Origin: a virus
Lineage: Duplodnaviria > Heunggongvirae > Uroviricota > Caudoviricetes
Direction: 5' to 3' (one strand)
Length of the DNA stretch: 4,566 bases
IMG/VR virus record: IMGVR_UViG_2531839234_000021
Every line of letters starts with the position of its first letter. The first letter of the stretch is position 1. The notes below the pieces were generated by a model, which had not been told where the DNA came from, ran no database searches, and saw nothing but the letters and a program-made list of their open reading frames with translations. Below, piece by piece: positions 1 through 1,702 of this stretch. Made by a program: the position numbers and the translations under genes.

Positions 1-23
1 ATACCGCCAAACGTCACCAGAAA
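1..23 (-). ncRNA. dicF: DicF small RNA, 5' portion only; the rest lies beyond the left edge of the window
   Basis: The reverse complement of 1-23 reads TTTCTGGTGACGTTTGGCGGTAT, which matches my recollection of the 5' end of the 53-nt E. coli DicF sRNA. It is on the same strand as, and downstream of, the repressor-side operon, as in the Qin dicA-ydfABC-dicF-dicB arrangement. Recalled from memory, not searched. Confidence 0.5.
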
Positions 24-1089: not shown

Positions 1090-1119
1090 AATTTAGAATA
1101 GCCTAAGAGTTATGGTCAA
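1090..1119 (-). promoter_or_regulatory. Putative early-left (PL-like) promoter with overlapping operator sites
   Basis: On the minus strand: -35 TTGACC (complement of 1114-1119), 18-bp spacer, -10 TAAATT (complement of 1090-1095). A TTAG-N6-CTAA operator-like site lies at 1093-1106 and an imperfect copy (GTAG-N6-CTAA) at 1129-1142. Confidence 0.35.
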
Positions 1120-1155
1120 GCTTTTTGTGTAGAAAAACCTAAGCTTCTTGATGTA

Positions 1156-1185
1156 AAAAACACAAGTATTTGAAAGTTTGTGCTT
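1156..1185 (-). terminator. Weak candidate terminator after the repressor gene
   Basis: 5-bp stem CACAA (1161-1165) / TTGTG (1178-1182) with a 12-nt loop, flanked by A6 on one side and T5 on the other, so a U-tract follows on either strand. The stem is short and AT-rich. Confidence 0.2.
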
Positions 1186-1218
1186 TTTATTACAGAGAGT
1201 TGCGAAAAAAAGGGGGGG

Positions 1219-1626
1219 TTATTTATTTGCGCTTCTTTTGCGAGCTTTGAGTAGTTCTTCAAAAAGTTTGTTGAAATTCTCAACTCGAGCACGCATCTCT
1301 GACAACAGAGCCTTTTGCTCTGACTCAGGCAGTGCGTCGAACAGTTGAAGCAACTCTTTTTGATCTTCTGTCAGATTGACTGGCTGATTATCTGGGATCG
1401 GTTCGCCTGGTTGCTTATCTTCATCTCCAAAAAGAAGCCAAGTCGGCGAGCACTGAAGCGCCTGGCTCAGTGCGAATAATCTCTTCCCCGCTGGCTGTGT
1501 TTCATCTCTTTCCCATTGAGAAATTGTTACGTGAGCCACTTTGACCAGCTTACCTAATGCGGCCTGAGACAGTTTTAATTTTTTTCGCCTGTATAAGAGG
1601 CGAGCACCGAAGGTTTCGTTTTTCAT
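1219..1626 (-). CDS. dicA: Prophage repressor, XRE-family HTH with a C-terminal helical domain and no S24 peptidase domain (DicA-like, 135 aa)
   Basis: Complete ORF. N-terminal HTH signature (LSQAALGKLVKVAHVTISQWERDETQP). Divergent from a Cro-like gene across an operator-rich intergenic region. Length and architecture match E. coli DicA as I recall it. On the same strand as dicF. Confidence 0.85.
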   Translation of the reverse strand: MKNETFGARLLYRRKKLKLSQAALGKLVKVAHVTISQWERDETQPAGKRLFALSQALQCSPTWLLFGDEDKQPGEPIPDNQPVNLTEDQKELLQLFDALPESEQKALLSEMRARVENFNKLFEELLKARKRSANK

Positions 1627-1702
1627 ATTAGGTAATTCTAATTTTTCTTGACTTAGGTTTCTCTACGATCTAGTTTCCTTAGGAAAATCTAAGGGTTTCG
1701 AT
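1627..1702. promoter_or_regulatory. Divergent promoter/operator region between the repressor and cro-like genes
   Basis: Three TTAG-N6-CTAA-type sites at 1628-1641 (ATTAGgtaattCTAAT), 1653-1666 (TTAGgtttctCTAc) and 1679-1692 (CCTTAGgaaaatCTAAGG), spaced 25-26 bp apart. Rightward promoter: -35 TTGACT 1648-1653, 17-bp spacer, -10 TAGTTT 1671-1676. Leftward -10 TAGAAT is the complement of 1635-1640. Cro RBS AAGGG at 1691-1695. Confidence 0.6.

Follow-up and report, generated by a model that had tools for sequence, protein, structure and literature searches.

TTAG-N6-CTAA palindromes at both lytic promoters of an O157-type prophage are probable operators of a DicA/DicC-type immunity switch

In the Qin prophage of Escherichia coli K-12, the repressor DicA occupies the operator Oc in vivo (TTGTTAGTCATAACTAACAA, a TTAG-N6-CTAA core flanked by TTG and CAA; Yun et al., 2012, PMC3441716). 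A single A-to-C change in this operator, which converts CTAA to CTCA, abolishes binding, and the dependence of Oc binding on DicA was demonstrated genetically (PMC3441716). Oc overlaps the -10 element of the dicC promoter, the start point of which was mapped by 5'RACE, and DicA bound at Oc both represses dicC and activates dicA (PMC3441716). Two other operators, Om and Oa, were predicted from sequence, and as isolated sites they were not bound by DicA in vivo (reported as data not shown); the binding of DicA is antagonised by a Cnu(K9E)-H-NS complex (PMC3441716). Operator sequences are carried by both the dicA-dicC and the dicA-dicBp regions (Ragunathan and Vanderpool, PMC10448788), in an account that cites Bejar et al. 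(1988) for the DicA operators. DicA has no cleavage site, and control over it is exerted by the antirepressor Rem (PMC10448788).

When the motif was located in the K-12 Qin sequence (locus L002), Oc was found at 2369-2382 and Oa, with a perfect core, at 2419-2432, two bases from the dicA ATG (2435), with a degenerate middle site (at about 2394) lying 25 bp from each of them. At dicBp, a perfect core (2915-2928) is placed between the TTGACC -35 and the -10, and a two-mismatch copy lies 35 bp upstream of that core (2880). Since Qin Oa has a perfect core yet is unbound alone, the 4-6-4 core is by itself insufficient.

The sequence analysed here (hereafter the window; 4,566 nucleotides of the viral record IMGVR_UViG_2531839234_000021) is the immunity and replication region of a lambdoid E. 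coli prophage of the O157 type. Prophages of O157:H7 and related strains match it over its full length at 96-97% identity, and further matches are deposited records of 'PPompW' and Stx2a-converting phages, whose central genes carry the annotations dicA, dicC and ydfC. Annotations in near-identical phages include ydfC and a cell division inhibitor gene, and those in near-identical prophages include rem. Of 5,426 complete E. coli genomes, 1,267 contain the 661-bp regulatory stretch or a related sequence, O157:H7 among them. To the right of the DicC-like gene, Pfam matches identify a YdaT-like gene, a DnaT/O-like replication gene and a lambda-P-like replication gene. On the left side of the window there is a ydfC-like open reading frame, and the start of the DicF RNA gene, cut off by the window edge, was the sole match when the whole window was searched against Rfam; because of these two features we consider the leftward operon to be of the dicBF type. 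Between the left operators and the stop codon of the repressor gene there is a hairpin, possibly the terminator of that gene, whose 3' stem arm is made up of its run of U. The leader of the left promoter as a whole did not fold better than shuffled sequences (z = -0.38). One small conserved hairpin with some covariation was seen in it. The coordinates of all these features, together with the occurrence of each palindrome in the related loci described below, are collected in Table 1.

Table 1. Features of the window, their counterparts, and the occurrence of the palindromes in 17 non-redundant DicA-type loci.
Feature	Position	Strand	Sequence or elements	Counterpart or match	Occurrence in 17 loci
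DicF small RNA gene, 5' part (first 22 bases) at window edge	1..22	-		Rfam RF00039, 25 bits, E=0.026, truncated	
Left promoter	1090..1119	-	-35 TTGACC 1119..1114, 18-nt spacer, -10 TAAATT 1095..1090	equivalent to Qin dicBp and lambda pL	
Proximal left site (promoter-proximal)	1093-1106		TTAGAATAGCCTAA, perfect; minus-sense reading TTAGGCTATTCTAA	equivalent to Qin dicBp site, L002 2915-2928	17/17, <=1 mismatch
Distal left site	1129-1142		GTAGAAAAACCTAA, 1 mismatch (starts GTAG); minus-sense reading TTAGGTTTTTCTAC		13/17, <=1 mismatch
Hairpin between repressor stop codon and left operators	1154..1189	-	12-bp stem; -11.2 kcal/mol, z = -3.85		
DicA-like repressor gene, 135 aa	1219..1626	-	N-terminal HTH_3	63% identical to Qin DicA over 131 aa	
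ATG-proximal right site, abutting the repressor start codon	1628-1641		TTAGGTAATTCTAA, perfect	equivalent to Qin Oa	perfect in 16/17; always 1-2 nt from ATG
Right promoter, of the dicC-like gene	1648..1676	+	-35 TTGACT 1648-1653, 17-nt spacer, -10 TAGTTT 1671-1676		
Middle right site	1653-1666		TTAGGTTTCTCTAC, 1 mismatch (ends CTAC)	equivalent to Qin Om	9/17, <=1 mismatch
Cro-proximal right site	1679-1692		TTAGGAAAATCTAA, perfect	equivalent to Qin Oc	17/17, <=1 mismatch
DicC-like Cro gene, 75 aa	1703..1930	+		Pfam P22_Cro 3.2e-13; 83% identical to Qin DicC	

A first-pass annotation, made from the letters of the window alone, had described five sites fitting TTAG-N6-CTAA, three of them between the repressor and cro genes and two at the putative left promoter. 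The coordinates of all five were correct, as was the spacing of 25-26 bp claimed for the right sites (starts at 1628, 1653 and 1679, giving 25 and 26 bp from start to start, with 36 bp between the two left sites); the middle right site, however, had been listed without its one mismatch (CTAC) being flagged. The 6-bp arms ascribed to the third right site were also found, since the cro-proximal palindrome extends to 18 bp, CCTTAGGAAAATCTAAGG, at 1677-1694 (arms CCTTAG and CTAAGG around GAAAAT). Perfect copies of TTAG-N6-CTAA number three in the window against 0.03 expected, a count that none of 200 shuffled sequences reached, and with one mismatch allowed there are five against 1.18 expected (reached by 1 of 200 shuffles), all of them in the two intergenic regions. 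No sixth site was found in the window at this threshold, and at two mismatches or fewer the count is no higher than background (14, with 16 expected), so that there appears to be no hidden sixth site; nor did the search at two mismatches find a third left operator. The expectation of about two copies of the CTTAGG/CCTAAG hexamer, on which the first-pass annotation had relied, was close to the 1.67 that we calculated, but the hexamer is not significantly in excess by itself: there are four copies, and 16 of 200 shuffles reach four. Each of the four, though, forms a half-site of one of the five palindromes.

The distal left and middle right sites are almost one 15-mer, being 93% complementary. 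Read along the lytic promoter that it overlaps, each of the five window sites has the form TTAGG-N4-TCTA(A/C). We considered the TTAGG-N4-TCTAA asymmetry as a conserved feature and rejected it, as it is not kept at the cro-proximal site in relatives; at the other sites it probably reflects overlapping promoter elements.

The right promoter was inferred by alignment to the Qin dicC promoter. It scores 8/12, which is under the threshold of the consensus scan, and its weak -10, TAGTTT, is left uncalled by that scan. At the left promoter, the TTGACC -35 and the placement of the operators match those of Qin. The sites had been said to sit precisely over the -35 and -10 elements, and this holds only roughly. 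The middle right site has a single base in common with the -35 TTGACT (the last of that element) and otherwise fills the spacer, and the cro-proximal site begins 3 bp past the -10 and covers the expected start point. At the left promoter, the proximal site occupies the spacer together with part of the -10; the distal site is placed 10 bp upstream of the -35. Some of the bases that flank the cores also have a second function: the GG flank of the 18-bp palindrome probably serves the dicC-like gene as ribosome-binding site (most relatives have CTAAGGAG), and the C preceding the middle site belongs to the -35. Because these flanking bases double as Shine-Dalgarno or -35 sequence, the 6-bp arms are not clean evidence of contact by a protein.

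On its minus strand, the ATG-proximal site, which is one base from the repressor ATG (1626), contains TAGAAT (1641..1636), the likely -10 of the repressor promoter, 9 nt before the ATG. This arrangement, with no Shine-Dalgarno sequence, is kept with minor variants in nearly all of the loci. The TAGAAT placed 9 nt before the ATG and the lack of a Shine-Dalgarno sequence lead us to predict that the repressor mRNA is probably leaderless. The repressor promoter has a poor -35 position, in keeping with the report that dicA requires activation (PMC3441716).

The comparison across DicA-type loci used 11 loci from species-representative genomes and 80 from viral contigs. The genome loci came from Pantoea, Enterobacter, Erwinia, Escherichia ruysiae, E. 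albertii, Buttiauxella, Citrobacter and Yersinia, with decayed copies in E. coli and Shigella. When 63 distinct haplotypes of the regulatory DNA were compared, copies of the motif were seen to recur near -66, -40 and -15 relative to the repressor ATG, and two more, 35-36 bp apart, downstream of the stop codon of the same gene. A non-redundant set was then defined at less than 90% repressor identity, and this comprised 17 loci whose repressors are 55-85% identical to that of the window; in every one of them a DicC-like gene lies opposite the repressor gene. Among these haplotypes and loci, those taken from genomes represent Escherichia, Pantoea, Enterobacter, Erwinia, Buttiauxella, Citrobacter and Yersinia. 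Absence of the motif from the orthologous promoters of related prophages had been named by the first-pass annotation as the observation that would count against a shared motif; we found it to be present in all 17 loci, at fixed offsets. Perfect copies number 41 in the 4,998 regulatory positions of these loci and none in their 63,445 other positions. An unbiased tally of all 4-gap-4 inverted repeats with gaps of 0-12 likewise placed TTAG-6-CTAA first, with 41 copies and at least one in each of the 17 loci. The runner-up had 12 copies, and the runners-up were extensions of the motif itself (CTTA-8-TAAG, GTTA-8-TAAC) or reflected the spacing between sites. The arms carry 1.2-2.0 bits of information and the six central positions 0.3-1.0 bits, and in the multiple alignment the arms are invariant and the DNA around them drifts. 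Invariant arms in drifting surroundings are, as a sequence pattern, the signature of a dimeric protein-binding site.

The consensus for the whole family, taken over 80 sites, is TTAGR-N4-YCTAA, with G at position 4 in 84% of them. Within it two classes could be distinguished. In the class of the window (12 loci, helix 2 SQAALGK), 67% of sites have C before the core and 93% have G at position 5; in the Qin class (5 loci, helix 2 TQRE/TQRS), 95% of sites have G before the core, usually as TG, and position 5 is free. As the flank preferences differ between the classes, CTTAGG is best seen as a class-specific half-site and TTAG-N6-CTAA as the family core. The covariation of flank and repressor counts as one evolutionary event, because the split between the classes is a single phylogenetic division.

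These comparisons bear on how many of the five sites the repressor itself uses. It is possible, though we think it unlikely, that only the cro-proximal (1679-1692) and proximal left (1093-1106) sites are true repressor operators and that the other three are DicC sites, promoter elements or decaying relics. Such a division would agree with the finding that Qin DicA bound Oc and neither Om nor Oa in vivo (Yun et al., PMC3441716), and with the degenerate middle site, carrying three mismatches, of all five Qin-class loci. The -10-like TAGAAT in the ATG-proximal site would moreover be conserved anyway, and the conservation of that site could be owed in part to this embedded element. However, the arms of the ATG-proximal site are perfect in 16 of the 17 loci, bases outside TAGAAT included, and the assay in Qin used isolated sites, with cooperative binding outside its scope. 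The middle and distal left sites are also not what simple relics would look like: in the class of the window each keeps one consensus half and has the variant CTAC as its right half in 10 of 12 loci, while the DNA flanking them diverges. This pattern suggests that the CTAC half-sites are weak sites under selection and not products of decay. Some sites may nevertheless serve only DicC, or only cooperative binding.

It is very improbable that the main ligand of the sites is a different factor that acts at the dic locus (YjdC/DicD or the Cnu-H-NS complex, for example). YjdC has been placed at the dic locus by ChIP-qPCR (PMC9283627), and Cnu(K9E)-H-NS affects the binding of DicA as an antagonist (PMC3441716), but the sites accompany the DicA/DicC gene pair from genus to genus, the base that flanks them covaries with the class of the repressor, and in Qin the occupancy of Oc depends genetically on DicA (PMC3441716). 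Least credible of all is that the palindromes are chance or compositional features of promoter DNA, which is indeed AT-rich here and in which CTTAGG alone is not significantly enriched: motif statistics and comparative counts have effectively refuted this already, with three perfect 8-base gapped palindromes where 0.03 were expected, copies at identical positions in 17 diverged loci (41 perfect against none elsewhere), conserved arms around variable spacers, and a core identical to that of a mutationally tested operator (PMC3441716).

We therefore return to the reading that the five sites are the operators of the DicA-like/DicC-like pair encoded in the window, forming an immunity switch of the Qin type. 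That the two proteins share these operators had been proposed in the first-pass annotation, and the core of Qin Oc, the layout of Qin and the conserved offsets make it, in our view, very likely. Much lower confidence attaches to the roles of the individual sites than to their identity as operators, because Om and Oa of Qin were unbound by DicA alone. In the mechanism that we propose, a dimer of the 135-aa repressor would bind each 14-bp TTAGR-N4-YCTAA core through its P22-C2-like helix-turn-helix, with one monomer on each TTAG half-site. Judged from their positions, occupancy of the cro-proximal site would block RNA polymerase at the dicC-like promoter, and occupancy of the proximal left site would block the left promoter of the dicBF-type operon. 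The weaker middle right and distal left sites, which have the same CTAC half, would be auxiliary and be filled cooperatively or at higher protein concentration. The ATG-proximal site, overlapping the repressor -10 and abutting the start codon, would provide autoregulation, and the DicC-like Cro would probably bind there first when the switch flips. Because the repressor has no cleavage domain, induction would be expected to proceed via an antirepressor, as with Rem in Qin, and not by RecA-stimulated cleavage.

The assignment of the two proteins is supported by their domains. The only Pfam matches of the repressor are to helix-turn-helix families, all in its N-terminal half, and a search of its 135 aa gave no Pfam match to a peptidase S24 or LexA-type cleavage domain. 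Residues 2-69 align without gaps to the N-terminal domain of P22 C2 (1ADR, 2R1J; E~1e-21), and the DicC-like protein matches the structure of P22 Cro (1RZS) at 6.4e-7. The P22 operator consensus, ATTTAAGATATCTTAAAT, is 18 bp long and consists of two TTAAG half-sites separated by four uncontacted bases, and in the operator complex (2R1J) Val33 of C2 contacts a TpA step (PMC5175364). The P22 and window systems are thus alike in having homologous C2 N-terminal domains and Cro proteins, and a 5-4-5 geometry of two 5-bp half-sites around four central bases. They differ in the half-site, which is TTAGR in the DicA family (TTAG or GTAG in all five window sites) and TTAAG in P22, and in the recognition helix, where three residues are exchanged from P22 to the window repressor (S31A, N32H, A34T). 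Val33, Ser36 and Gln37 are invariant across the DicA family, as is the His at position 32, which is Asn in P22. The proteins differ too in that C2 (216 aa) has a C-terminal LexA-like, RecA-sensitive domain whereas the window repressor has none, a contrast that has likewise been drawn for Qin DicA (PMC10448788). A tentative reading of these differences, one we would not yet favour, is that in the DicA family the P22 C2 fold has naturally acquired a variant specificity, with His32 paired with the change from TTAAG to TTAGR, and that the family is itself split into two immunity specificities set by the base next to the core; in this scheme His32 would, hypothetically, read the G of TTAGR. If there were two such specificities, the prophage would be hetero-immune to Qin despite their common core, and the conserved CTAC half-sites would tune the order in which the sites are occupied.

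A similar combination of features has been described in the O157:H7 prophage CP-933P, where the PaaR2/YdaS region has four footprinted, evenly spaced 18-bp inverted repeats, the paaR2 mRNA is proven to be leaderless, and the published half-site consensus is GTTTAGTAA (PMC8630535). Made palindromic, this consensus would give a TTAG-N6-CTAA core. CP-933P therefore resembles the window in its lambdoid layout, its inverted repeats and its leaderless repressor mRNA (probable in the window), and differs from it in having four repeats and an unrelated repressor, PaaR2. A scan of viral contigs for the CP-933P palindrome, GTTTAGTAANNNCTAAAC, returned more than 120 matches, which gave no sign of an origin in E. 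coli prophages. TTAG-N6-CTAA is absent from the racR-ydaS intergenic DNA of the Rac prophage; by eye, TTAGG-N5-CCTAA sites, with a spacer one base longer, can be seen there. Nor was any similarity detected between the Rac proteins and the pair in the window. We had considered that the common TTAG core might be dictated by a shared Cro family, and dropped this idea on these grounds.

With lambda OR and OL the window shares a divergent repressor and cro pair with three operators between them, repetition of the same type of operator at a leftward promoter downstream of the repressor gene, and a leaderless repressor mRNA (that of cI in lambda, and probably that of the window repressor). The cores of the window are, in contrast, 14 bp long (18 bp when extended) where those of lambda are 17 bp, with 25-26 bp from centre to centre; the left promoter has two sites, even at two mismatches, where lambda has three; and the DNA-binding domains show no sequence relationship at the level tested, with no RecA-sensitive domain in the window repressor. 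The description of the right operator as tripartite and unlike that of lambda in site geometry is thus borne out as to the difference, but the geometry was already known from P22 and Qin, and the left operator has two sites.

Qin remains the closest match, and the window sites are the direct counterpart of the DicA operators already described there; the identification is sound, and it is not new. Besides their related repressor and Cro proteins (Table 1), the two systems have in common the TTAG-N6-CTAA core, a row of three sites at intervals of about 25 bp that ends against the repressor start codon, a pair of sites downstream of the repressor gene that flank a TTGACC -35 at a distance of 35-36 bp from each other, and a dicBF-type operon under the left promoter. 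They differ in the flank of the core, which is C in the window (C-TTAGG) and G in Qin (TG-TTAG...CTAA-CA), in position 5, a conserved G in the class of the window and free in Qin, and in the middle site, near-consensus in the window and degenerate in Qin. The window module, moreover, adjoins intact replication genes in an O157-type prophage, whereas Qin is decayed. No new kind of regulation is revealed by this comparison, which ties the system structurally to P22 C2 and maps the conserved operators of the DicA/DicC switch in a family of prophages. To the Qin model it adds three refinements: a family-wide core, TTAGR-N4-YCTAA, a flanking base that is specific to the class, and a conserved weak CTAC half-site.

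The leader of the left operon, a dicBF-type operon read leftward from its own promoter, is recognisably conserved. A near-identical copy of CATCAAGACACCGCACGGTGTTCTCAGCAAACAGTTCCGCTACCCGGCGTTAAGGGG lies upstream of ydfA in Qin, the K-12 cryptic prophage, and its conservation could be recognised in 10 further DicA-type loci. Within the leader, a 4-bp hairpin (CGCC...GGCG) carried a compensatory CG-to-AU change in 3 of 12 sequences, and the whole leader folded no better than its shuffles. The first hairpin, ACACCG/CGGTGT, is replaced in relatives by AATCAC/GTGATT, a change that looked compensated when judged by eye. The conserved leader may serve the dicBF operon as a nut-like element, or in processing or termination control. 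At the window edge the start of the DicF model was matched at 25 bits (E=0.026), the match being truncated there.

Feature coordinates in the window and, for the Rac prophage, in its own locus (L094)
Feature	Position	Strand	Remarks
DicF small RNA, first 22 model positions	1-22	minus	Rfam RF00039 match at window edge
99-aa ORF	655-954	minus	overlaps plus-strand frame 677-720
Frame starting MNTIKFSCPECGG	677-720	plus	zinc-ribbon-like
Transcribed leader of left operon	1010-1078	minus	contains CATCAAGACACCGCACGGTGTTCTCAGCAAACAGTTCCGCTACCCGGCGTTAAGGGG
AT-rich hairpin, 12-bp stem	1154-1189	minus	between repressor stop codon and left operators
TAGAAT before repressor ATG	within 1624-1641	minus	9 nt upstream of ATG
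Repeated palindromes, K-12 racR-ydaS region	L094 620-700 and 1243-1365		intergenic and left-promoter regions

The hairpin behind the repressor gene (-11.2 kcal/mol, z = -3.85), in which the U run makes up the 3' arm of the stem, may end repressor transcription ahead of the left promoter. The zinc-ribbon-like frame meets a stop codon after 13 residues and the 99-aa ORF had no Pfam match; either of these two overlapping frames may be the real one, and one is possibly a pseudogene. The minus-strand hypothetical protein annotated at the same place in near-identical phages is longer (118 aa).

In two comparison loci, L012 (E. coli ECMA0423) and L013 (Shigella flexneri SFBU0723), the DicA-like genes are frameshifted or interrupted by stops, yet perfect TTAG-N6-CTAA sites are still present at the left promoter; such sites may persist after the repressor is lost, or they may be maintained by one whose gene lies at another place in the genome. 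The Rac prophage palindromes, TTAGG-N5-CCTAA or ATAGG-N5-CCTAA repeated in both regions, match the half-sites of the window, although their spacer is one base longer, and similarity of RacR and YdaS to the window's proteins was not detectable.

Ahead of the repressor ATG there is no Shine-Dalgarno sequence (1624-1641), and the TAGAAT-ATG arrangement lacking one recurs, sometimes slightly altered, in almost every one of the 17 non-redundant DicA-type loci. On this sequence pattern the repressor mRNA is probably leaderless, and would in this respect resemble the leaderless mRNAs of lambda cI and of paaR2 of CP-933P (PMC8630535).
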